DNA from: Candidatus Uhrbacteria bacterium
GTDB lineage: Bacteria; Patescibacteriota; Patescibacteriia; JACPHY01
DNA: 64,000 nt
NCBI GenBank assembly: GCA_016188355.1
Contig: JACPHY010000016.1
Coordinates: forward strand, 2,345 to 66,344
Direction of reading: 5' to 3'
Positions 1-35,347 of this stretch are shown in pieces; position 1 is the stretch's first letter; every line of letters begins with the position of its first letter. Both the position numbers and the translations under genes were made by a program. The notes under the pieces are model-generated. The model searched no databases, was not told the origin of the DNA, and saw only the letters and a program-made list of their open reading frames with translations.

Positions 1-735
1 TGTGGAGAGAATGAAGAACTCATCGCGACGGAGTATAACGTGCCCATTCTTGGGGCGGGGAATCGGCTCAAAGAAGTCGAGGGGATCGTGATCCGTCGAT
101 CGGAAATCAAGGACGGTGCCGCCATGAGGACGGCACTTGTATCCGACGATCGGTTGTTCGAGATCGACCGTGAGCGTGACGCCACCACGGTCATCAAGTT
201 CGACGTGCTCGCGGGCGATGTGGATGCCGTTCTCCGTGTGGAGGAGCGCATCGTACGCATAGAGCGCCTCGAGTTCCGTTCGGCTGAGCGTGCTCTCCGC
301 ATTGAAGAATCGGATTTGATTCAAGGCGTCGCCCGCCGAGAGCTTCACCGAGAATGAACGCGGAATCACGAGGAGCCAAAGACTGCCATGGTACCCACGG
401 GGGAGCGCATCAAAACGAGGCACGCCATCCGCGAGTACGCGCGCCTGGAGGTTCACGCGTCCGGTGGAAGATTTGTTATTCGTGCGCGCGTAGACGGTGG
501 GACGCAACGCGAGCGTCTCGCGCAAGCGGATGAGGTAGATGCCTTGGCACTCGAGCGGCTTGCCGAGATCCCAGGGGAAAAGTGATCCCTCCTGGAGGAG
601 GTCGCTGATGGATTCCCCGGCACGCGGGAGAAAGACCCCCTTCATTTTGTAGATTTCATCGGAGATGGTGAGATCGAGCGATGAGGGCTGCGTGCGCGCC
701 AAATCCCCGCCGACGATTTCTCCGTCCGCGATCAT
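1..735 (-). CDS. dCTP deaminase-like protein (dUTPase superfamily); N-terminal 245 codons, gene continues beyond window start
   Basis: Hand translation of the minus strand gives an unbroken frame from ATG at 735 to base 1 (edge-truncated, so absent from the ORF track). Segment ARTNNKSSTGRVNLQARV resembles the dCTP deaminase RSSLARLGL region. Plus-strand ORFs 40-357 and 388-585 are antisense to it. Confidence 0.45.
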   Translation of the reverse strand, partial: MIADGEIVGGDLARTQPSSLDLTISDEIYKMKGVFLPRAGESISDLLQEGSLFPWDLGKPLECQGIYLIRLRETLALRPTVYARTNNKSSTGRVNLQARVLADGVPRFDALPRGYHGSLWLLVIPRSFSVKLSAGDALNQIRFFNAESTLSRTELEALYAYDALLHTENGIHIAREHVELDDRGGVTLTVDLEQPIVGYKCRPHGGTVLDFRSTDHDPLDFFEPIPRPKNGHVILRRDEFFILST

Positions 736-835
736 GCGCTCGATGCACTGACTGGGAAATGCGCCGAGAGCCACAAGTCATTGTGGGCAAACCTTCCGGT
801 TTTCCCACAGACCCTTTCCCTCCAGCCGGTCAGCA

Positions 836-900
836 CACCGATTCGGTCGCTTGCTTCCGGGCGAGCGAGGGCCGGGCAAAGCCCTTCCCCCCTCGTTCGT
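836..900. repeat. Diverged short copy of the 99-bp repeat family at 33186-33376 (core ccgggcaaagccc hairpin with a different but still complementary outer stem)
   Basis: Shares gccgggcaaagcccttc and cgttcgtcctc with the long copies. Outer stem is gaggg/ccctc here versus gcaggag/ctcctgc there. Confidence 0.4.
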
Positions 901-945
901 CCTCAGCTTCGCTCTGATCAGTTTGGAGGAGTGTCTGTGGATGAA

Positions 946-1626
946 TTAGAGCTGCACTTTCACGCTCGGACCCATGGTGGTGGTGAGGAAGGCGGACTGG
1001 ATGTACGTACCCTTGGCGGATGGGGGTTTGGCACGGCGGATCGCGTCAAGGAATGTGGTGGCGTTCTCGAGAATTTTTTCCGCTCCCCATGATGCCTTTC
1101 CAATAATTTGATGGACATTCGAAGTGGCATCATTCTTGAAGGCGACGCGACCGCCTTTGAGTTCACGAATCGCCTCTGCGATTTTTGGGGTGACGGTGTC
1201 ATTTTTTGGTGAGGGCATGAGACCGCGCGGACCCAAGATTTTTGCGATGGTCGCCAGGTCCTTCATGAGGTCCGGTGTGGCCACCGCAACATCGAATTCG
1301 ATGTGTTCCGTGGTGCGAATCTGATCGATGAGCTCCTTTCCGCCCACGAGATCTGCTCCAGCGGCGCGTGCGTCTGCCTCACGATCGGCGGGCACGAATG
1401 CGACGACGCGCTTCGATTTCCCGGTGCCGTGGGGGAGCGAGACGGTGCCGCGGACCTGCTGCTCTCCCTTTTTGGGGTCGATGCCCAGGCGCACGTGTAC
1501 TTCTACGGATGCATCAAACCGTGCTGGGGAGGTCGTCACGACGAGTGCCGCGGCGTCTGCGAGTGCGTAGGATTTCTTGGAATCGACGAGTGCTGCGCGT
1601 TTCTGATATCGCTTACCGTGTGCCAT
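946..1626 (-). CDS. rplA: 50S ribosomal protein L1
   Basis: 226-aa ORF with full-length L1-like sequence (MAHGKRYQK...GPRGLMPSPK). Confidence 0.95.
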   Translation of the reverse strand: MAHGKRYQKRAALVDSKKSYALADAAALVVTTSPARFDASVEVHVRLGIDPKKGEQQVRGTVSLPHGTGKSKRVVAFVPADREADARAAGADLVGGKELIDQIRTTEHIEFDVAVATPDLMKDLATIAKILGPRGLMPSPKNDTVTPKIAEAIRELKGGRVAFKNDATSNVHQIIGKASWGAEKILENATTFLDAIRRAKPPSAKGTYIQSAFLTTTMGPSVKVQL

Positions 1627-1698
1627 ATGGGTATGTGGTGCGAGCGTGTCGGAACAGAAACGTTCCGGGCACTCCCACGCGAGAGAAAATGAGAAAAA

Positions 1699-1989
1699 TT
1701 ATTTCGTGTGCTGCTCCCTGCTGCACGATTTCCGGCAGCACCACGTTCTTCCGGGGAGGACGAGAAGCGGAATACCGAGGATGAGGAATGTGGCGGCGCT
1801 GATCCATTGGCGTGCCGCGTAGGGGCCACTCGAGCTTCCGCCGTAATATCGGGCTGCCTCCGGAGCGAACAGGGTGAGCAGCTGCGTGATGCCGGCGTAT
1901 GCCCCAATGAGGATAAGGATGATCCCGGTGATCCGGAGGAGATACTGGTACACGGATCGAATGATGTCCATTTTTTCCGAGTGCTCCAT
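1699..1989 (-). CDS. Small two-helix membrane protein of unknown function between rplK and rplA
   Basis: 96-aa ORF with two hydrophobic segments. GAGGAG Shine-Dalgarno 7 nt upstream of the ATG, overlapping the rplK stop. Confidence 0.55.
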   Translation of the reverse strand: MEHSEKMDIIRSVYQYLLRITGIILILIGAYAGITQLLTLFAPEAARYYGGSSSGPYAARQWISAATFLILGIPLLVLPGRTWCCRKSCSREQHTK

Positions 1990-1993
1990 AGGG

Positions 1994-2419
1994 CTACTCC
2001 TCGGTCGTCACGCCCATCTGCCGCGCCGTGCCGGCGATGATCTTCATGGCGCGTTCGACGTTGGTGGTGTTGAGGTCGGGGATTTTTTTCTCTGCTACCG
2101 CGCGGAGCTGCTCCTTGGTGAGCTTACCAACCTTCTCCTGCCTCGGTTTTCCGGATCCCTTAGGAATGCCTGCGGCTTTTTTGATGAGCTCCGATGCGGG
2201 TGGCGTCTTCAGGATGAACGTGAACGATCGGTCCTCGTAGACCGTGATGATCGTCGGAACGATTTCGTCCACGCGTCCGGCCGTCTTCGCGTTGAATTGA
2301 CTGCAGAATTCCTGAATGGGCACGCCATGCTGACCGAGCGCCGGACCAATCGGCGGTGCGGGATTCGCTTTTCCTGCAGGAATCTGGAGCTTAATGAGGA
2401 CTTTAATCTTTTTTGCCAT
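1994..2419 (-). CDS. rplK: 50S ribosomal protein L11
   Basis: 141-aa [35 protein letters not shown], canonical L11 N-terminus. Confidence 0.95.
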
Positions 2420-3740: not shown

Positions 3741-4481
3741 GTGGGTGAACAGGACACGTCAGAGCGATCGGGATCGAGGTCTGGCATCGGGAAGACGGTA
3801 CTGGGCTGGTTTGTGCAAACCGATCCGAGCGGCCCATCCGATCCGGCAGAAGTCGCGCCAACAGATTCGGGGCAAGCCGCAGATGCAATTCCGGCATCCC
3901 TCCGCAAGGACGTCCAGCCGACGGTGCCCGCGGGCGCTCCCGTGGAGTCTCCTCCCGTACCGTCGACCCCGCCGATCGATGTCGAGGTCAATCTCGATTC
4001 GATCTACGCGGAGCAGGGACTCGCCAGCAATCCTGATGCCGAGCGGATTCTCGGTGCAATCGAAGGCATGCAGGGCATCGATGCGTCCGCACGCCGTGCG
4101 GCAGTGGTCGCCATGGTGCGGGCATTCGCGGTGGATGCGTCGACGCTGCGTGCGACATTGATGGATCGGACATCTGCGCTGGATGCGACCATTACGGACT
4201 GCGAGCGGGTCGCAGAGAGCGGTCGCACGGAGCGTGCGCGCTCCCTCGCGGCGCTCACCGCGTCGACGCAACAGGAAATCGCGGCGCTCCAAGAGGAGAT
4301 TGCACAGAAGGAACGCACGCTCGAGGGGACGCGCACCATGATGCAGCGGACGGAAGCCGCAGAACAAGAGAAACTGGATGGGCTCCGGGCGAAGCTCGGG
4401 GCAGAGCGCGATCGATTGACCGCGCTCATGGAGTATCTCCCCATGACGGGGAGCAGCCCGAAGGAGGGACTGAAGCCATGA
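3741..4481 (+). CDS. Hypothetical coiled-coil protein (Pro/Ala-rich N-terminus)
   Basis: 246-aa ORF with GTG start preceded by AAGGAG. Stop overlaps the start of the next gene (ATGA). Confidence 0.5.
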   Translation: MGEQDTSERSGSRSGIGKTVLGWFVQTDPSGPSDPAEVAPTDSGQAADAIPASLRKDVQPTVPAGAPVESPPVPSTPPIDVEVNLDSIYAEQGLASNPDAERILGAIEGMQGIDASARRAAVVAMVRAFAVDASTLRATLMDRTSALDATITDCERVAESGRTERARSLAALTASTQQEIAALQEEIAQKERTLEGTRTMMQRTEAAEQEKLDGLRAKLGAERDRLTALMEYLPMTGSSPKEGLKP

Positions 4482-7260: not shown

Positions 7261-8084
7261 TCGCGACCTATCATCCCGCCCCAGTGCTGCGGGTCGAGCA
7301 GGTGTCGTTGACGCTCGGAGGAAATGTGATTCTCCGGGACGTCTCCTGCATGATTCGCGATATCGTCGGGCGCGGGCAGGTGGTGGGACTTCTGGGGCCG
7401 TCGGGGATTGGGAAGACGCAGTTCTTTCGGATTCTCGCCGGACTCCAGCAACCGAATACGGGGCGCGTGCTCCTGAATGCGGCGGGCACCCCGGTGCGCG
7501 TGGGCGAGGTTGGCGTGGTCATGCAGCATTACCCGCTCTTTGCAGATCGGACCGTGCTCCAGAACTGCATGGATGCGGGTCGTCGCGCTGGCATGGATCG
7601 TGCGGCGGCAGCGACGCGCGCGACGGAGCTCCTCACGAAACTCGCGGTCGCGGATCGTGCGGAGTACTACCCCGCGCTGCTCTCCGGTGGACAGCGGCAA
7701 CGGGTGGCGATCGCGCAGCAGCTCATGTGCTCGCAGTACTTCCTGCTCATGGACGAGCCATTTTCTGGATTGGATCCGGAAGCGGTCGACACCGTATGCG
7801 AGCTCATCCATGACATCGCGGGCATGCATGAGCTGAATACGATCGTGGTGGTCACCCATGACATTCGTGCGGCCATGAAGGTTGCGGACGAGCTCTGGCT
7901 CATGGGACTCGATCGCGCCGCCGACGGGGCGTTTGTTCCTGGGGCACGCGTGCAAACCACGTACGATCTTGTGGCGCGAAACCTTGCGTGGGCACCCGAT
8001 GTGAGTCGGCGGCCGGAGTTCGACGCCCTGTACCATGAGGTGCGGGAGCGATTCCGCACGTTGAAACCAAAGCCCATCACGTGA
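7257..8084 (+). CDS. ABC transporter ATP-binding protein (SsuB/TauB-like)
   Basis: Walker A GPSGIGKT, signature LSGGQRQR, Walker B LLMDEP. ATGA overlap with the permease stop. Confidence 0.85.
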   Translation: MIATYHPAPVLRVEQVSLTLGGNVILRDVSCMIRDIVGRGQVVGLLGPSGIGKTQFFRILAGLQQPNTGRVLLNAAGTPVRVGEVGVVMQHYPLFADRTVLQNCMDAGRRAGMDRAAAATRATELLTKLAVADRAEYYPALLSGGQRQRVAIAQQLMCSQYFLLMDEPFSGLDPEAVDTVCELIHDIAGMHELNTIVVVTHDIRAAMKVADELWLMGLDRAADGAFVPGARVQTTYDLVARNLAWAPDVSRRPEFDALYHEVRERFRTLKPKPIT

Positions 8085-9254: not shown

Positions 9255-11315
9255 TCAAATATCCAAGTTTTTGACTGCCTTCGCGTGGGTCTGGATGAAT
9301 TTCTTTCTCGGCTCCACATCAGATCCCATGAGCACATCGAAGATGGCGTCCGCTTTTTGAGCATCGTCGACGGTGACGCGCTTGAGGACGCGACGTTCGG
9401 GGTCCATGGTGGTTTCCCAGAGCTGCTCCGGGTTCATTTCTCCCAACCCCTTGTATCGTTGAATCGATGCCTTGATTTCTGCGGGGATCTCCTCGTCCGT
9501 TTTTGCTTCCTTGTTTTTCCGCTCCTGCGTTTTTCCGTGCTTGCGTGATTCCTGGAGCTCGCGAAGGATATCATCGCGTTGGTGGTCGGAATACGCGTAC
9601 CGCACCTCCTTGCCCACCTGCACGCGGAAGAGCGGCGGCTGTGCGATGTAGAGATGGCCTTCGGTGATCACCTTGGAGAAATATCGCCAGAAGAGCGTGA
9701 GGAGGAGCGTGCGAATGTGTGCACCGTCCACGTCCGCATCGGTCGCGATGATGATGCGATCGTATCGGAGCTTTGCGATATCGAATTGTTCGCCGATGTT
9801 GGTGCCGAGCGCGATGATGAGTGACTTGATTTCGTTATTCGCCAGCATCTTGTCGATGCGTGCGCGTTCCACGTTGAGAATTTTTCCCCGGAGCGGAAGA
9901 ATCGCTTGGAATTCGCGATTGCGACCGGATTTCGCAGATCCTCCTGCGGAGTCACCCTCCACAATGAACATTTCGGAAACGCTGGGGTCACGAGATGAGC
10001 AGTCGGCGAGCTTCCCGGGGAGCGTGAGTCCTTCCAGTGCGCCCTTGCGGAGCACGGTGTCACGCGCCGCGCGTGCTGCCTTTCGGGCTTGCGCGGAGAG
10101 GAGACAGCGTCCAATGATCGACTCCGCGTCGCGGGGATGCTCTTCGAGGAATGCGGCGAACGAATCGCCCAATACCGTTGCGACCGCGGTTTGCGCTTCG
10201 GGGTTGCCGAGCTTCGCTTTCGTTTGCCCCTCAAACTGAGGATCTTTCACCTTGATGCTCACGATGGTGGTGAGTCCTTCGCGTACGTCTTCACCGGTGA
10301 GGTTCTCGTCTTTCTCTTTGAGCATCCCCTTCGCACGCGCGTACGCATTGAGCGTGCGGGTGAGCGCGGTGCGGAAGCCGGCGATGTGCGTGCCGCCCTC
10401 GGGGTTGAAAATGTTATTCGCAAACGCGAGCGCAGTTTCTTTGTAATCTTTCGTGTATTGCAGTGCGACCTCGACGTTGATTTCCTCCGCTTCTTTTTCC
10501 ACGTAGAAGACCGCATCCTGCGCGAGCTCTTTGCGGTGATTGAGGTGGCGCACGAATGCTGCAATGCCACCCTCGAAATGGAAGGTGTAGGTCGAGGTGA
10601 GGGGAACGGCGCCGGTGGCCTTGGGGTCAAATGCGGACTCCATGAATCGTTCCGCGAGTGCCGCATGGTTCCGGAGATCTTCCACGATGAGGGTGACGCC
10701 CTTCGTGAGGTACGCCTGCTGGCGAAGGTGGTCGAGGATCGTGGGGAGATCGAAGATGATCTCCGTGAAAATGGTGGGATCGGGATGAAACGTGACCGCC
10801 GTGCCCGTCCCGGGAAGCTGCGCGCGACCCACGGATTTCACCTTCCCCTGTGGAACGCCGCGGTGGTATTCCTGGACCCAGCGTTGCTTCTCCCGTTGCA
10901 CTTCTGCACGGAGCAGGGTGGAGAGCGCGTTCACCACGGAGACGCCCACGCCATGGAGTCCGCCGGAGACTTTGTAGCCGCCACCGCCGAACTTACCTCC
11001 CGCATGGAGCTTCGTCATGACGAGCTCTAGTGCCGAGGTTTTGAATTGCGGATGCGGATCCACGGGGATGCCGCGGCCGTCGTCGACGACCTGCACATAG
11101 TTGTCCGGCAGCATGCGCACGAGAATGCGCTTCGCGTGACCGGCCATGGCTTCATCGATGGAGTTGTCGACGACCTCCCAGACGAGATGATGCAGTCCCT
11201 GTGGTCCGGTGGAGCCGATGTACATTCCTGGGCGCTTCCGGACCGGATCGAGTCCCTCCAGCACGGTGATTTGCTGGGCAGTGTAGCCGGATTTTGGTGG
11301 AGTGGATTTGGGCAT
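9255..11315 (-). CDS. gyrB: DNA gyrase subunit B
   Basis: GHKL ATPase and TOPRIM motifs, C-terminal ...GLGEMNPEQLWETTMDP. Start placed at MPKSTPPKSGYTAQQI (internal Met of the ORF). Confidence 0.95.
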   Translation of the reverse strand: MPKSTPPKSGYTAQQITVLEGLDPVRKRPGMYIGSTGPQGLHHLVWEVVDNSIDEAMAGHAKRILVRMLPDNYVQVVDDGRGIPVDPHPQFKTSALELVMTKLHAGGKFGGGGYKVSGGLHGVGVSVVNALSTLLRAEVQREKQRWVQEYHRGVPQGKVKSVGRAQLPGTGTAVTFHPDPTIFTEIIFDLPTILDHLRQQAYLTKGVTLIVEDLRNHAALAERFMESAFDPKATGAVPLTSTYTFHFEGGIAAFVRHLNHRKELAQDAVFYVEKEAEEINVEVALQYTKDYKETALAFANNIFNPEGGTHIAGFRTALTRTLNAYARAKGMLKEKDENLTGEDVREGLTTIVSIKVKDPQFEGQTKAKLGNPEAQTAVATVLGDSFAAFLEEHPRDAESIIGRCLLSAQARKAARAARDTVLRKGALEGLTLPGKLADCSSRDPSVSEMFIVEGDSAGGSAKSGRNREFQAILPLRGKILNVERARIDKMLANNEIKSLIIALGTNIGEQFDIAKLRYDRIIIATDADVDGAHIRTLLLTLFWRYFSKVITEGHLYIAQPPLFRVQVGKEVRYAYSDHQRDDILRELQESRKHGKTQERKNKEAKTDEEIPAEIKASIQRYKGLGEMNPEQLWETTMDPERRVLKRVTVDDAQKADAIFDVLMGSDVEPRKKFIQTHAKAVKNLDI

Positions 11316-22623: not shown

Positions 22624-24840
22624 TTAGAGTCCGAACAGCTTTTCAAGGTCGCTTGCCCCGGAATTTCCGCTCTGTTTGCGGAATGTATCAAAGGCGTCGA
22701 GCTTGAGTCCTGTTGATGCACTCGAGCTTCCGAATGCGCTCGATGACTTTTGCCCGCGCGCTTCTTGAAGCGCGTTGTTGAGCGAATTTCGAGCCTCGGA
22801 GAGCTGCTCAAATGCCTCCAGAAGTGCATCGGTGTCCACCGGCTTCTTCTTGGCGAGGCCCTGAATCTGGGCGAGCACGATCTTCCCATCGCTGAGCGCT
22901 GCCTCGAGCGACTTTACGTCCACGCGTTTGCGCTTCAGGGTCGTGATCTCGCGCTGGATTTTCGAGACCTCCTTGGTCGCATCGGAAATACCGCGACCCA
23001 TGTCGGTCACCGATCGGATCGCTTCAATTTTTTCACGGATGTCATCGAAACTGTCCCGGAGTTCGAAGAGACGATCGAGCGACTCCTCACTGACCGATTT
23101 CATTGCTTCTGCGAGTGCGTTCTTGATTTCTCCGATGGATTTACCGGCAGCGTCGATTTCTTCGCTCACGTCGATCTTCGCACGAGTCGCTTGGCTGGTG
23201 ATTCGCTTGAGATCCGACTCCATGCGTCGGAGTTCGCTCGTGAGCTGTTTCGAGACGCGCGGGAATTCCTGGATGCGCTGACAGTGGTCCACGGTTTCTC
23301 GGACACGGTCACCTACGTCCGCGAATTCCGAGAAGTCCACATCCTGTACTTCTTCAACGTCGGTAGCAGATTGGACCTTCGTGAGCGAATCGCGCAGCAT
23401 CTGGAGTCCATCGGTTACCTCCTCTGGGACCTCCACCTTTGCTTTCGTGCAGATGGCTAGGGCGCTCGACATTCGCTTATATCCGGATTCCAGATCCTTC
23501 AATCGCTTCTTCGCCTCCTTCAGCATCTGCTCTTTCTGCTGTTTCTCCATTTCCTCGCCCATCTCGTCGTTGGGCTGCATCCGATCCGACGCGTCGCCCA
23601 TTTCCGGTCGACCAAGGGATTCGCTGCCGATGCCATCAGCAGAGCGGCGAGCGGGGGAGCATTTTTCTTGCACCATTCGGCGCTGTGCCTCACTGGGCCC
23701 GCTTCCACTGCGGAGTTGATCGACCTTGTCGCCGATGACGGAGCGGACGCAGGATTCGAACTCATTTGCCGCGGGGCGCATGTTTTGTGCCTCCCCACCG
23801 AATTTGTTGTTTTCATTGGGTCCAGAGAACGGCGCGCGAGCTCCTCCAAGGACTGAGGGGTCGTTATCGGGCATCCGTTTGGAATCCTGCATGCGCGTCG
23901 CATCCTCCATGGGAGGACCCTTCATCACTTCCCCGGGTCCCTGGGGGGCCTTTGGGGTGAGTCCCGATGGGTCGTTGCGGGTCATTCCATTGATGCCATT
24001 GGGGCCATTCACGCCGTTCATCCCATTCAAACCATTCATCCCGTTGATGCCGTTTAGTCCATTCATCCCATTCGGTGCGCCCGGAAAGTTCGTTCCCACA
24101 TTCGGCCCGGAGTTGGGATTGTTGAAATTATTTGGCTGGTTTCCACCGAAATTCGTATTGGGGCCACCCATTCCCCCAGGGGAATTCATGTTCCCGGATT
24201 TGAGCGGATCCTTGGAGTCACCGGAGCCGCCGGGGGGTTGTTGGCCGCCAAAGTTATTGCCACCCAATCCCGGCATGCCGCCGAAATTATTCCCTCCGGG
24301 CGTTCCACCGAAGTTTGGGCCACCGAAATTGCCTCCCGGATTTCCTGGATTCCCGCCAAAATTATTTCCGCCGGGATTGATTCCAGTGTTCCCTCCGCCG
24401 GGATTTCCCCCGAAATCACCTCCTCCGGGATTCCCACCGAACGATCCTCCTGGTGGCGGACCTCCGAACGATCCTCCTGGTGGCGGACCTCCGGGCGAAC
24501 CGCCTGGTGGCGGACCTCCTGGGGGTGGACCTCCTGGGGAGCCGCCGCCTGGCGGGGGTCCTCCGGGGGGTGGACCTCCGGGATCCTCTGCGGCGCGGAA
24601 AGTGGCGCTGCCCGATTTCGACCATGATGCACGAAGTTCCGAGCATTCCTCCTGCTGATCCATGCAGAAAGAGGTGCACTCTGCCTCCGTGGTGCATTTG
24701 CCATCAAGATATGGAGGAACAATGAAATCTGCGGTGACGCGGTACTGATCGATGGAATTCGCCGCAATGATGGTTGCGGATGGGGCGAGTACCACGATGA
24801 GTCCCGCAGTAATGAGCTGCTTGCGGTAGGGAAACGCCAT
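22624..24840 (-). CDS. Large secreted/surface low-complexity protein (signal peptide, Cys-rich head, GGPPPGG and GxNGxNG repeat arrays, C-terminal coiled coil)
   Basis: 738-aa ORF with an N-terminal hydrophobic signal-like segment. About 250 aa of Gly/Pro/Asn repeats, then an alpha-helical C-terminal half. Confidence 0.7.
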   Translation of the reverse strand: MAFPYRKQLITAGLIVVLAPSATIIAANSIDQYRVTADFIVPPYLDGKCTTEAECTSFCMDQQEECSELRASWSKSGSATFRAAEDPGGPPPGGPPPGGGSPGGPPPGGPPPGGSPGGPPPGGSFGGPPPGGSFGGNPGGGDFGGNPGGGNTGINPGGNNFGGNPGNPGGNFGGPNFGGTPGGNNFGGMPGLGGNNFGGQQPPGGSGDSKDPLKSGNMNSPGGMGGPNTNFGGNQPNNFNNPNSGPNVGTNFPGAPNGMNGLNGINGMNGLNGMNGVNGPNGINGMTRNDPSGLTPKAPQGPGEVMKGPPMEDATRMQDSKRMPDNDPSVLGGARAPFSGPNENNKFGGEAQNMRPAANEFESCVRSVIGDKVDQLRSGSGPSEAQRRMVQEKCSPARRSADGIGSESLGRPEMGDASDRMQPNDEMGEEMEKQQKEQMLKEAKKRLKDLESGYKRMSSALAICTKAKVEVPEEVTDGLQMLRDSLTKVQSATDVEEVQDVDFSEFADVGDRVRETVDHCQRIQEFPRVSKQLTSELRRMESDLKRITSQATRAKIDVSEEIDAAGKSIGEIKNALAEAMKSVSEESLDRLFELRDSFDDIREKIEAIRSVTDMGRGISDATKEVSKIQREITTLKRKRVDVKSLEAALSDGKIVLAQIQGLAKKKPVDTDALLEAFEQLSEARNSLNNALQEARGQKSSSAFGSSSASTGLKLDAFDTFRKQSGNSGASDLEKLFGL
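24420..24600. repeat. Tandem 15/27-nt codon repeats (ggtggcggacctcc...) encoding the GGPPPGG array inside the large gene
   Basis: Direct near-identical DNA repeats visible at 24430-24590. A second NG-repeat array lies near 23990-24075. Confidence 0.5.
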
Positions 24841-32326: not shown

Positions 32327-33127
32327 GTGGCGAATACGGGTTCTTCCCAGAACGTCAGTCAGCTCTTCCAGGCCGCGCAGCAGGAGGGCGACCTCTCGGC
32401 GCAGTCCGCGGCGATTCTGCTCGCGCCGGATATGGGTCTCCAGATTCAGGCCGGGCTCGGCGCGCAGATCGATGATGTCCAGGCGAGCGAGGTGTTTCTC
32501 GTGGCGCTGATGCCGGATGACTCTGGGTCGATCGCGTCTGCGAACAATGAGCAGACCGTTCGTGACGGACACAACCTCGTGATCGAGGCCCTGCGGGATT
32601 CGAAGCAGGGCGATGGCATCCGGGCGCACTGCCGATATCTGAACGGCAAAGTGCTCTACGCGTTCGGGTCGCTCGACGCGGCCGTGAAGATGGATGGTCG
32701 AAACTACCGCGCGGACCAGGGGACGCCGCTCTACGATCAGACGGTGGTGCTCCTCGGGACGGTACTCGCGGAGGCGAAGGCGTTCGAGGATGCGGGCGTT
32801 CCGGCACGGACCGCGACCCTCATCATCACCGATGGCGCCGATCTCCACTCGAGGAGGAAGGCGAAGGATGTGAAGGCGATCGTCGACGATATGCTCCGCA
32901 AGGAAATGCATATCGTCGCGGCCATGGGCATCGATGACGGTGGCGGCACGGACTTCCGCAGGGTGTTCCGCGACATGGGCATCCGCGACGAGTGGATCCT
33001 CACGCCGGGCAACTCGGCGAGCGAGATTCGTCGGGCATTCTCGGTGTTCTCGCGGTCCGCGGTGCGTGCGTCGCAGTCCGCGGGCAGCTTCAGTCAGACG
33101 GCGGCCGGCGGTTTCGGCGCTCCGTAG
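32327..33127 (+). CDS. Small vWA-domain protein (TerY-like) with intact MIDAS
   Basis: DDSGS MIDAS, downstream Thr and TDGADL motif; GTG start with AAGGAG RBS. Confidence 0.7.
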   Translation: MANTGSSQNVSQLFQAAQQEGDLSAQSAAILLAPDMGLQIQAGLGAQIDDVQASEVFLVALMPDDSGSIASANNEQTVRDGHNLVIEALRDSKQGDGIRAHCRYLNGKVLYAFGSLDAAVKMDGRNYRADQGTPLYDQTVVLLGTVLAEAKAFEDAGVPARTATLIITDGADLHSRRKAKDVKAIVDDMLRKEMHIVAAMGIDDGGGTDFRRVFRDMGIRDEWILTPGNSASEIRRAFSVFSRSAVRASQSAGSFSQTAAGGFGAP

Positions 33128-33185
33128 CTGATCATCGGTACGCAGTTCCTTCTGACCGGTCCCACCATGCGTGGGGCCGGTCGTT

Positions 33186-33376
33186 CTTTTCACAAGGGAC
33201 TTCGTCCTCGGTGCGACCCCTGCCTCGCCACGGCGCAGGAGCCGGGCAAAGCCCTTCTCCTCCTGCTTGGGCTCGGCATGCCCTCTTTTCACAAGGGACC
33301 TCGTCCTCGGTGCGACCCCTGCCTTGCCATGGCGCAGGAGCCGGGCAAAGCCCTTCTCCTCCTGCTTGGGCTCGGC
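33186..33376. repeat. Two tandem 99-bp direct repeats (about 95% identical), each containing a nested stem-loop gcaggag-cc-gggc-aaa-gccc-ttct-ctcctgc
   Basis: Copies start at 33186 and 33285 with identical cores. Located between the vWA stop and a shared terminator; a third diverged copy is at 836-900. Confidence 0.7.
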
Positions 33377-33378
33377 GG

Positions 33379-33420
33379 TGAAAAAAAGAACACCGGCTCT
33401 GGGGAAGCCCAGAGCCGGTC
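33379..33420 (-). terminator. Intrinsic terminator for the convergent large vWA gene (11-bp stem ccggctctggg/cccagagccgg plus U7 on minus strand)
   Basis: Perfect stem with gaag loop. tgttcttttttt follows on the minus strand; T-rich flank also on the plus side (possibly bidirectional). Confidence 0.5.
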
Positions 33421-33446: not shown

Positions 33447-35012
33447 TCAGGTGTCGGTGCCGCGATTGCCGCCGCCGAGGAGTTTCCCGAGGCGCTCGAT
33501 CACACTCGGCCGGCGTCGCAGTTCGGCGGTATTGCTCACTCGGAGCCGATCGCCGTCGATGATGATGTGGTTCGGATCCACGCCCGCCTGCCGCACTGCC
33601 TCGAAGTCTTTTATTTTGAGATCTCCGAGGATCGTCATGTCATCGAATGCCTGCTGCTGCTGGGCGGACGGCATGCCGAGCGACGTGTAGTCGGACCGAC
33701 CGCCGCCATAGCCCGACATGTACGTCCGTCCTGCATCCCGGAGGTGTCCCGCCTGCTCCGCGAATCGCTGTCGGTCTCCGAGGTCACTGCCGATCCGTTC
33801 GAGTTCGGCAACTCGTTCCTTTGCTTCCGGGAGATCGATGCGCTTCAGCTCCTCTCGAATGGCGAGGATGCGCTGCGCTGCGTCCGTGAATCGACTATCC
33901 CGTGCGTACCGCCACGCATCCTGAATGGCGATGCCGGCCGCGATCTGGAGTCGATCGAGCTCGATCTGCGGATCCGGTCGTTGCTCGGCGTCACTGGGTG
34001 CCACGTATCGGAATCGCGCCTCGCTCGAGATGTCGAACGGCGTGCCGTCCACCCGTTGACCGGTCACTCGAACCGTCGCTGCGGACGTCGCACGCGGGAA
34101 GACTTTGTCGACGGACGGAATCTGGAGTTCCGCCGTCACGGATGCCGGCTTTCCGTCGTACAGGTTGCCGATGGCCAGCGTGACGTCGTTGCCGTTTTGT
34201 CCCGCTGCAATGATCGGCACGTTCTCCAGGACGACGACGTGGAACGGATCATGTGCGGTGATGCGGACGCGCACGTTCGTCGCGGTGAGACTGCGGAGGA
34301 ACCCGAGCTCCATCGCGAACGCGTGGATGAGCGCATCTGCTCCCTCTGCGTGGTACGAGACGCCGCCACTCAGCGTTGCGATTGCCTCGAGCAGTTCCGG
34401 GTCGTATCCATCGGCACCGGCCGCATGACCGACTGGACCGAATCCGAACGTCGCGATGGGCACATCACTCATCGCGGCTCGTCGGCGTTCCCGAATTGCC
34501 GCGCAGATGTTGTCGTGCCCCGTAATGCCGACGGTCGGCACGCCATCCGTGAAGAGGATGATGCGTTGCGTGCGGAGCTGGTCTTCGGGCTGTGTCTCCT
34601 CCGCGAGCATCGTGATCGCTTCGCCTACACCGTCGACGAGGTTCGTGCTCCCATGCGCACCGATGCGTCGGATGCTCTGCTCGAGCATGGCACGCTTCGT
34701 CCGCAGGGTACCGATCGGCGTGAGCACGTGCGCGCTGTCCGAGAATGCGACGAGCCCGACGCGATCGTGGTCATCGAGCTGGAGCAGGAATCGGAACATG
34801 GCCTCTCGCGCGGCGTCGCGTTTGGTGGGACTACCGTGGCGATGATCCGTGGCCTCGCACATGGAGGATGATGTATCCGCGACGAGGACGATGTCCTTCG
34901 GCATCGGCTGCATCGCATGCGGCATGGGTCCGGCGACGCGCACGACGAGGTGTGTGGGTTCCGGATGGCGATGGTTGATTTTCTGTCGGGTCAATCGGAC
35001 GCTGACGTCCAT
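33447..35012 (-). CDS. Large vWA-domain protein with long C-terminal helical extension
   Basis: MIDAS DTSSSM, then T and LFTDG. GAGGAG RBS 7 nt before the internal ATG (MDVSVRLTRQ), so the start is placed at 35012, not the ORF-track 35078. Confidence 0.7.
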   Translation of the reverse strand: MDVSVRLTRQKINHRHPEPTHLVVRVAGPMPHAMQPMPKDIVLVADTSSSMCEATDHRHGSPTKRDAAREAMFRFLLQLDDHDRVGLVAFSDSAHVLTPIGTLRTKRAMLEQSIRRIGAHGSTNLVDGVGEAITMLAEETQPEDQLRTQRIILFTDGVPTVGITGHDNICAAIRERRRAAMSDVPIATFGFGPVGHAAGADGYDPELLEAIATLSGGVSYHAEGADALIHAFAMELGFLRSLTATNVRVRITAHDPFHVVVLENVPIIAAGQNGNDVTLAIGNLYDGKPASVTAELQIPSVDKVFPRATSAATVRVTGQRVDGTPFDISSEARFRYVAPSDAEQRPDPQIELDRLQIAAGIAIQDAWRYARDSRFTDAAQRILAIREELKRIDLPEAKERVAELERIGSDLGDRQRFAEQAGHLRDAGRTYMSGYGGGRSDYTSLGMPSAQQQQAFDDMTILGDLKIKDFEAVRQAGVDPNHIIIDGDRLRVSNTAELRRRPSVIERLGKLLGGGNRGTDT

Positions 35013-35347
35013 GGCAATTCTCCTCTGCTGGTTGGGTTGCGGATAGTCGATGCGGAGTGAGGGATGTGTCACTCCCAAATCGACCGAGATCCCATCCCCA
35101 CACCCTCAGCCATACGCAGCGGCGGTCATCCCAATTCCGGAGATCCGGAAGCGGACGACCCAACGGTGTCGTACGGTGGAGCGATGTGCGTGAACTCCCC
35201 GATTGGGAAGGAGCACCAGGACGATACCATAGACGATCCGTCATGTCCAGGGCTTGACGCGGTGCGGAAGGATGGGTATACCAAGGCTGGGAGTCCTCCC
35301 AAGGAATTGCTGTCGGTGTCCCATACAGGGGCGCAGAGAGGAGCATC

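Follow-up and report, generated by a model that had tools for sequence, protein, structure and literature searches.

What is the tandem repeat that lies between two gene ends in a Candidatus Uhrbacteria bacterium, and is it anything more than a recent local duplication? The repeat occupies positions 33185-33376 of a 64-kb stretch of contig JACPHY010000016.1 (assembly GCA_016188355.1), hereafter the window, which has a G+C content of 60.5% and was analyzed here together with ~6 kb past its left end. A first-pass annotation had described two tandem copies and a diverged third copy downstream of rplA, and had taken the retention of pairing in spite of sequence change as the mark of a selected RNA or DNA structure, for example a repetitive extragenic palindromic (REP)-like element. 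Small palindromic repeats are as a rule confined to one lineage, and how they spread has been worked out for few families, such as the REP sequences with their RAYT transposase; bacteria of the candidate phyla radiation (CPR), in turn, have tiny genomes and are thought to carry few repeats. We report here that the repeat is defined by a two-tier hairpin, in which the apex (GGGC-AAA-GCCC) and an asymmetric internal loop (CC/UUCYC) are fixed, while the basal stem is required only to pair and is therefore free to vary, with full compensation, even among copies in one genome. This hairpin core is common, to the letter, to elements of Patescibacteria, Clostridia and Dormibacterota-like genomes, and is absent from Rfam. 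Our preferred reading, to which we would give an even chance, is that the three sites in the window are small imperfect-palindrome repeat elements of the same kind as REP sequences, transposable elements of the miniature inverted-repeat type (MITEs) and Rickettsia palindromic elements (RPEs).

Results

A hairpin module common to three sites of the window

Tandem Repeats Finder (TRF) reports a period of 99, with 1.9 copies and 96% matches, at 33185-33376, and the second unit is 96.8% identical to the first by BLAST (estimates range between 96 and 97%), which bears out the approximately 95% originally given. Unit 1 (33185-33283, + strand, 99 nt), recognized by TRF, by folding and by a covariance model of the whole unit (model R2, 115 bits), is composed of a small 5' hairpin followed by a long two-tier hairpin, while unit 2 (33284-33376, + strand, 93 nt; TRF, BLAST and folding) is truncated at its 3' end. 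The core two-tier hairpin of unit 1 spans 33235-33266 on the + strand, with a stem that reaches 33221-33278 (folding; 46.5 bits with model R1, a covariance model of the hairpin), and consists of GCAGGAG at 33235-33241, CC, GGGC AAA GCCC at 33244-33254, TTCTC, and CTCCTGC at 33260-33266. The nested stem-loop is hence present as had been claimed, with the correction that its 3' internal loop is TTCTC and not TTCT. The core of unit 2 is found at 33334-33365 (+ strand; sequence and model R1, again 46.5 bits). On the same strand, folding places the small 5' hairpin of unit 1 at 33191-33213 (CAC..GGGAC-UUC-GUCCU..GUG) and its counterpart in unit 2 at 33290-33312, so that across both units this hairpin reads GGGAC-YUC-GUCCU and is lengthened by CAC/GUG. 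Only three substitutions separate the two units, namely one hairpin-loop base, one internal-loop base and a C-G to U.G change, and all three are structure-neutral.

The third hairpin, at 859-902 on the + strand (44 nt; folding, and 51 bits with model R1), combines a 13-bp basal stem, inclusive of two G.U pairs, with CC, GGGC-AAA-GCCC and TTCCC. Its basal stem is unrelated in sequence to that of the tandem units, and the exact stretch common to the three sites is the 17-mer GCCGGGCAAAGCCCTTC; an identical inner core within a different, and yet complementary, outer stem had been proposed, and is what we find. Across the window the 13-mer CCGGGCAAAGCCC has three exact occurrences, at 872, 33242 and 33341, where 0.15 would be expected, and with model R1 the three sites score 46-51 bits (E ~1e-10), whereas the next best hit in the 64 kb scores 15 bits. 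The view that the third site is a diverged 99-bp copy with a 35-nt deletion, on the other hand, had to be abandoned, as BLAST aligns it with the 99-nt unit over only 37 nt at 76% identity, and model R2, applied to 853-907, matches solely with its positions 38-93 (32 bits). What the third site and the tandem units have in common is the hairpin module and not the whole repeat. A small hairpin (ACCG-AUU-CGGU, 837-847, + strand; fold of 820-930, z = -2.9) also precedes the third hairpin, and the two together echo the small-then-long layout of the tandem units.

Covarying stems around the same core in unrelated genomes

The 17-mer was searched for in one genome per species, and at least 119 stretches carrying it were returned, so that the copy numbers given here are lower bounds. 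The bulk of these matches are scattered chance matches within genes, but a subset has the architecture seen in the window. Among the listed matches, which represent 117 unique sites, 23 have at least six contiguous flanking pairs, all in a single register (the one that leaves CC and UUCNN unpaired), while each of nine other registers yields between zero and two such sites. The recurring architecture, stem-CC-GGGC-AAA-GCCC-UUCYC-stem, is found at dozens of loci in metagenome-assembled genomes (MAGs) of Clostridia/Lachnospiraceae, in Dormibacterota-like soil MAGs, and in metagenomes. One Lachnospiraceae MAG alone carries it at 8 or more sites on 7 contigs, with compensatory stems (TTGGCG/CGCCAA, TTGTCG/CGACAA, TTGCCG/CGGCAA and TTGGAG/CTCCAA). 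Structured sites are further listed for Clostridia MAGs, a Eubacteriales MAG and Candidatus Dormiibacterota MAGs, and for MAGs labelled Chloroflexi, Actinomycetes and Acidiferrales; isolate names suggest that the Clostridia carriers come from termite-gut and other gut samples.

A scan of metagenomes with the 20-mer GCCGGGCAAAGCCCTTCYCC returned 64 loci, the majority of which are structured. For the analysis of covariation, 74 distinct sites were picked solely by this 20-mer, which fixes the first stem pair alone. Stem pairs 2-6 are formed in 81-91% of these sites, with all four Watson-Crick types represented at each position, as opposed to 37-62% paired in a control where the 3' partner was slid along. 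The covariation score is 0.476 compared to 0.125 in shuffled alignments, and none of 500 shuffles scored as high. The same core is therefore enclosed in covarying stems in many unrelated genomes, and the proposal that pairing kept in spite of sequence change reflects a selected, REP-like RNA or DNA structure is upheld by a check on aligned sites.

None of the known structured RNA families accounts for the element. At the gathering score, Rfam 15 contains no family matching the window or 20 loci of the family, and permissive thresholds yield only chance-level matches at the element in either set. A literature search by sequence retrieved only the inverted terminal repeat of adeno-associated virus 2 (AAV2) and a Thermus 16S fragment, both coincidental. 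An origin from phages or plasmids was considered and dismissed, given that the collections searched yielded only two sites for viruses and no significant one for plasmids.

The whole 99-nt unit has homologues outside the window as well. Locus L174, which emerged as a weaker match to model R1 among metagenome loci, is a 10.7-kb metagenome contig with 65% G+C that carries, on its + strand, genes for transketolase, pfkB and class II aldolase. Its positions 7470-7571 (- strand) align full length with the window unit. Between the two sequences the small hairpin changes from GGGAC/GUCCU to GGGGC/GCCCC and the basal stem from GCAGGAG/CUCCUGC to GCAAGGG/CCCUUGC, while the 3' tail UUGGGCUCGGC is identical. 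A second and more degenerate copy lies at 9881-9980, 2.4 kb from the first, and in L174 the element is antisense within intercistronic spacers. In an alignment of the four sequences, both partners have changed in four pairs, and 100% of the cells of the small hairpin are paired, so that compensatory changes are seen in both hairpins of the L174 homologues, the small one being kept with two compensatory pairs. Because these homologues are full length, dispersed and compensated, the repeat is more than a recent local duplication, the case that the first-pass annotation had named as one that would refute its proposal.

Gain, loss and position of the element

The third hairpin is situated between rplA (946-1626, - strand) and dcd (start at 774, - strand), in a spacer of 171 nt, and has the orientation opposite to both genes. 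Both loci had been described as 3' regions; this description fits the tandem pair, which lies between gene ends, but is too simple for the third site, which is antisense in an intercistronic spacer. In Uhrbacteria relatives the rplA-dcd synteny is kept, with spacers of 144, 108 and 42 nt that are unrelated in sequence and devoid of the element. In relative L193, whose VWA protein is 87% identical to the one encoded next to the tandem units, the terminator of the gene is kept and no repeat is found in the ~140 nt beyond it, before the contig ends. Model R1 detected no copy in ~29 kb of the relatives' loci. The absence of the element from orthologous sites of close relatives argues that it is no conserved cis-regulator of the dcd or VWA genes, and the possibility that it is a riboswitch or leader of dcd was rejected on the grounds that relatives with rplA-dcd synteny lack it and that neighboring genes are unrelated across loci. 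Short-read contigs from the same strain stop inside the repeat. Tandem pairs also occur elsewhere, with a 66-nt period in L131 and a 61-nt period in L161.

Two copies interrupt other sequences. A SAM-I/IV riboswitch that precedes a MetH gene in L043 (3394-3565, + strand; 39.3 bits against a gathering score of 41.1) carries in its P2 loop a 71-nt insertion, where the model has 10 nt, made up of a ~58-nt element and flanking bases. This riboswitch, which lies on the strand opposite to the element that interrupts it, is the only near-threshold Rfam match encountered. In L134 (6787-7569, + strand), residues 11-31 of UppS are the in-frame translation of the element, and the Pfam domain begins at residue 37; the element belongs to an N-terminal extension (ESGGGPPARRPGKALPPPPPPP), and there is no alternative start codon between it and the catalytic motif. 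At L146 and its orthologues, the element occupies exactly the spacer that runs from the argR stop to the argG start.

When gene context was scored for 18 sites using crude gene calls based on the longest open reading frame (ORF), 13 were found in co-directional spacers and five in convergent ones, with none in divergent spacers; in the co-directional spacers the element is sense in eight cases and antisense in five. REP sequences are likewise reported to lie downstream of ORFs, in convergent or co-directional spacers and seldom in divergent ones (PMC3733652), a distribution with which the bias at our 18 sites agrees.

Architectural classes

The hairpin is embedded in several distinct architectures. 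In a soil class of 55-60 nt the order is (T)G6-loop-C6, 2-4 nt, the core hairpin, 1 nt and C6(TG). The G6-loop-C6 hairpins almost never occur without the core, and are therefore part of the element; the same observation rules out that they are pre-existing targets. A role for this class as a translational leader adjacent to start codons was also evaluated and gave no clear signal, with 14 of 43 counted on the motif strand and 9 on its reverse complement. In a second soil class the hairpin lies on the sense strand 25-70 nt upstream of gene starts (argB, guaA, rplB and a cyclase). In a related set of loci (L137, L173, L181 and L199, e.g. L199 2596-3117), it lies 60-70 nt inside a conserved sequence, CGAAGCCTCGCCGACA..GGCTCGGC, which has a sharp left boundary and is followed by a Shine-Dalgarno site and an uncharacterized ORF of a family (P0126-P0130) that has no match in Pfam, NCBIfam or PDB. 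These loci could represent an autonomous element that carries the hairpin.

A Firmicutes class of ~200 nt possesses a second conserved domain (L116 480-1100 and 2860-3500; L024, L058, L073, L079 and L127). On the reverse-complement strand this domain reads ACC-stemA-AGCGGUUAG-hairpin-CGUGYCCGCGUUAA-stemA'-GGUGYC and has no Rfam match; its stem A covaries, with G.U pairs confined to the reverse-complement strand. In two loci, L079 and L127, the element begins 8 nt beyond the 3' CCA of a tRNA. L116 also harbors other tandem hairpin repeats (CAGTGAAGG...), again with no Rfam match. By eye, the third site of the window seemed homologous to this long form through a shared C/U-rich block (GGTTTTCCCAC...CCCTTTCCCTCC); we discarded the idea, as the site ranked eighth in an nhmmer profile search, with E = 52. 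In the Oscillospiraceae MAG Po218_bin13, three copies (L003 1046, L012 7124 and L035 2666) share a variant hairpin, GCAGACC-GCC-GGGCAAAGCCC-UUC-GGGUCUGC, with no YC, that starts ~5 nt after an extended -10 promoter (TGnTATAAT). The variant in L035 is situated ~100 nt upstream of an ORF of 835 aa in which a resemblance to a glycoside hydrolase family 3 (GH3) beta-glucosidase is seen by eye. The window unit and its L174 homologues form a separate class of their own.

Strand of the element

Family-wide, 471 of 502 stem pairs are Watson-Crick, and the remainder comprises three isolated G.U pairs on the motif strand, eight on the opposite strand, and 20 other mismatches. In the window class, both the third hairpin and the extended stem of the units contain + strand G.U pairs, one of which is conserved in L174a. 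Folding energy favors the + strand at the third site and, slightly, the - strand at the tandem units. Neither strand is consistently favored by wobble pairs or by folding energy, and RNA as opposed to DNA, the former having been among the structures first proposed, is not singled out. Stems that are almost entirely Watson-Crick, with few wobble intermediates and no strand preference, fit a DNA palindrome.

Surroundings of the window copies

The tandem pair is placed between two convergent genes, each with its own terminator. The upstream gene (32327-33127, + strand; third-position G+C, GC3, 0.83) is followed by an intrinsic-terminator-like hairpin (33153-33183, + strand) that abuts unit 1, and 16 nt past unit 2 a bidirectional, terminator-like hairpin (33392-33419, both strands) follows the convergent VWA gene (33447-35078, - strand; gene call), both hairpins having been identified by a terminator scan. 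These two regions (33153-33191 and 33377-33419) resemble each other in inverted orientation, with the pattern ACCGG..CCGGT(C)GTTCTTTT(TTT)CAC, which means that the tandem pair is bracketed by an inverted pair of similar terminator modules. The repeat itself was considered as an intrinsic terminator and rejected, since the scan marks the flanking hairpins only and what comes after the core is CUUGGGC (tandem units) or CCUCAGC (third site) and not a U-tract. A scan for the sigma-70 consensus, which may not apply to CPR, found no promoter-like site near the tandem units, and a small protein encoded across them was ruled out because the ORFs there show a non-coding GC3 pattern. A further cluster of tandem repeats in the window (23982-24583; periods 9, 27, 15 and 45, e.g. 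CCTCCTGGGGGTGGA) is probably a Pro/Gly-rich repetitive coding region.

Around the third site, the gene order is secE-nusG-rplK-rplA, followed by dcd, dut, YfbR-like, thyX, tmk and tdk in place of rplJ-rplL (window 1-2419; L002 1-8285). The genes from dcd to tdk form a deoxynucleoside triphosphate (dNTP) and thymidylate cluster, and the rplA-dcd synteny is common to Uhrbacteria relatives. Between rplK and rplA lies a 96-aa ORF (1699-1989, - strand) that has no Pfam match and is called as a gene in the same-strain contigs. In relative L192, genes of the 23S_rRNA_IVP family (PF05635) are located at 1988-2365 and 3780-4166, in the nusG-rplK and rplA-dcd spacers. The rplA-dcd spacers of two Uhrbacteria relatives (L188 1646-1789 and L190 2212-2319) contain A+T-rich nested inverted repeats of a different kind, CTAATGACGAA...TTCGTCATT and AATGACCAA...TTGGTCATT, that is, another palindromic element in the same spot. 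Spacers of the ribosomal operon appear to be insertion hotspots.

Discussion

If the three sites are small repeat elements, as we are inclined to believe, the hairpin would be extruded in single-stranded nucleic acid, be it DNA exposed at replication or transposition or a transcript, and the invariant apex and asymmetric loop would, most plausibly, offer a recognition surface to a protein acting in trans that spreads or maintains the elements. In this genome, one element would have inserted into the rplA-dcd spacer and another between two convergent terminators, the latter then undergoing tandem duplication, and hairpins that are transcribed would form stable 3'-proximal structures by which the ends of mRNAs are protected or read-through is blocked. 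Mobility, partner protein and effects on mRNA are all inferred by analogy with the REP/RAYT and IS200/IS605 systems. We think it unlikely that a single mechanism operates throughout. If it did, the invariant G-CC-GGGC-AAA-GCCC-UUCYC-C would be the recognition element of one widely distributed machinery (a new hairpin-specific nuclease or transposase, or a conserved RNA-binding protein) common to Patescibacteria, Clostridia and Dormibacterota-like bacteria, and the hairpins would make up an undescribed class of structured element that crosses phyla; otherwise they would be lineage-specific repeats that have nothing to do with each other.

Several observations weigh against the repeat-element interpretation. 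Neither an IS200 TnpA nor a RAYT gene was detected by tblastn in ~1.4 Mb of loci plus the window, although this is a weak test, and the window copies show no GTAG/CGTC tag, clear terminal inverted repeats or target-site duplication. The third site has only the hairpin module in common with the tandem units of the same genome, which is unlike a recently proliferating family. The invariance of the core is in part a matter of ascertainment, since the search patterns fixed it, and the sole variant core that we found, with CC changed to UC and UUCUC to UUCUG, indicates that the loops can change. Furthermore, at orthologous sites in soil lineages the element is conserved to the same degree as the coding flanks or better, with 98.7% as opposed to 86-88% at the argR-argG sites of L146 and L150, which points to a function at the level of the host and not to junk.

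The last of these observations also speaks for another reading, in which the hairpin is a functional structured RNA module, i.e. a transcribed hairpin serving as a site for a conserved RNA-binding protein or as a stability or termination element, recruited into different lineage-specific RNAs (leaders, small RNAs, intercistronic elements or elements of 3' untranslated regions, UTRs). We regard this as the main rival and consider it less likely than not. The structure-neutral nature of all three substitutions between the tandem units speaks for it, as do the + strand G.U pairs of the window class, inclusive of the one kept in L174a, and the confinement of G.U pairs to one strand in the second domain of the long Firmicutes form. 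Position can be read in the same way: the hairpin precedes the argB, guaA, rplB and cyclase genes in sense orientation, the Oscillospiraceae variant begins just after an extended -10 promoter, and elements of termite-gut Clostridia start, also in sense, within ~15 nt or less of stop codons or of a tRNA 3' end, with a U-run after the element in L079 and L127. Yet orientation is mixed, with five antisense copies for eight sense ones and antisense placement in intercistronic spacers at the third window site as well as in L174; wobble pairs, rare as they are, show no strand bias family-wide, and folding energies favor different strands at different copies. Nor would one expect of such a module that close relatives lack it at orthologous sites, that Rfam holds no match even at permissive thresholds, that no promoter-like site is found near the tandem units, or that one copy is translated within a coding sequence (UppS of L134). 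The repeat-element and RNA-module explanations are in any case compatible, and REP-type elements are often co-opted as RNA hairpins.

Two other explanations fare far worse. It seems very improbable that the GGGC-N3-GCCC palindrome is a double-stranded DNA operator bound by a dimeric regulator, for instance of the dNTP-metabolism genes downstream of rplA, in spite of the apex being a perfect 4+4 palindrome and of the third site being located ~100 nt upstream of the dcd-dut-thyX-tmk-tdk cluster. The flanks covary as a hairpin and are not conserved as sequence, a conserved internal loop that is asymmetric (2 vs 5 nt) would be meaningless in duplex DNA, the ends of two genes enclose the tandem copies and leave no promoter to regulate, neighboring genes are unrelated across loci, and relatives with the same dcd cluster lack the site. 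Least credible of all, to the point that we count it as already refuted, is a chance resemblance combined with a recent local duplication, the 17-mer of the third site being accidental. A 17-mer shared within a 64-kb window is, admittedly, not astronomically unlikely, and the third site cannot be aligned outside of the hairpin, but its two-tier architecture and loop register are the same as in the tandem units, that register is enriched at least 10-fold over other registers in the unbiased sample of listed matches, the model E-values are in the order of 1e-10, and another organism has dispersed homologues of the full unit.

Among known systems, the REP sequences and their BIME and REPIN arrangements offer a close frame of comparison for what we believe to be repeat elements. 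Both are G+C-rich imperfect palindromes with an internal mismatch or bulge, present in multiple extragenic copies that are often clustered or in tandem, mostly downstream of genes and occasionally intragenic, and plausibly transcribed as hairpins. In size and shape, the core hairpins (32-44 nt, and backed by covariation) correspond to the imperfect palindromes of 20-40 bp typical of REP; in location, the lack of divergent placements among the 18 sites, as judged from longest-ORF gene calls, is REP-like. As for copy number, three copies in 64 kb here can be set beside the at least eight sites on seven contigs of the Lachnospiraceae MAG. In the known REP super-families, however, one end of the palindrome bears a GTAG or CGTC tag that is unpaired (PMC3733652), and in the sequences flanking the window's three copies and the aligned members of the family, no consistent GTAG or CGTC stands at the foot of the stem. 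Besides the missing tag, no RAYT gene was detected in the ~1.4 Mb of loci and the window that were searched. Moreover, classical REP families are species- or genus-specific in sequence, whereas the stem of this element varies even within one genome while its apex and asymmetric loop are identical across phyla.

Other small repeats share some features with the element as well. The RPEs are 100-150 bp long and are not known outside Rickettsia, where they insert in spacers and, in frame, in protein-coding and RNA genes that survive the insertion; the element is similarly tolerated in UppS, in frame, and in the loop of a SAM-I/IV riboswitch, but there is no sequence relationship between the two, and the window copies are all outside genes. 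MITEs resemble it in being small, non-autonomous intergenic repeats in either orientation, with presence/absence polymorphism between relatives, and the G6...C6 termini of the soil class could serve as short terminal inverted repeats. Neither a target-site duplication nor a parent insertion sequence was identified, none of the empty sites in relatives was near enough in sequence to show where the element ends, terminal inverted repeats are absent from the window copies, and the conserved part of the element is an internal hairpin and not the ends. The subterminal hairpins of IS200/IS605 elements are imperfect, with extrahelical or unpaired bases, and are recognized in single-stranded DNA by Y1 (HUH) transposases. 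They too conserve shape and leave the stem sequence free, but no TnpA or TnpB gene lies beside any copy examined, and no logic of the guide-tetranucleotide type was identified. Finally, the element recalls an intrinsic terminator or a stabilizer of 3' UTRs in that the tandem copies adjoin terminators and some Clostridia copies are followed by U-runs, but the window core lacks a U-tract, and terminators are not characterized by an asymmetric internal loop that is conserved.

The finding that a hairpin module with the same apex and loop and a free stem is present in a CPR bacterium, in gut and termite Clostridia and in Dormibacterota-like soil genomes has practical consequences, in that the element breaks short-read assemblies and can be mistaken for a small RNA or a terminator. 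If a single partner recognizes the module, it would represent a new and very broadly distributed system for the mobilization of repeats or the binding of RNA and, should this be so, would provide a handle on the dynamics of CPR genomes.

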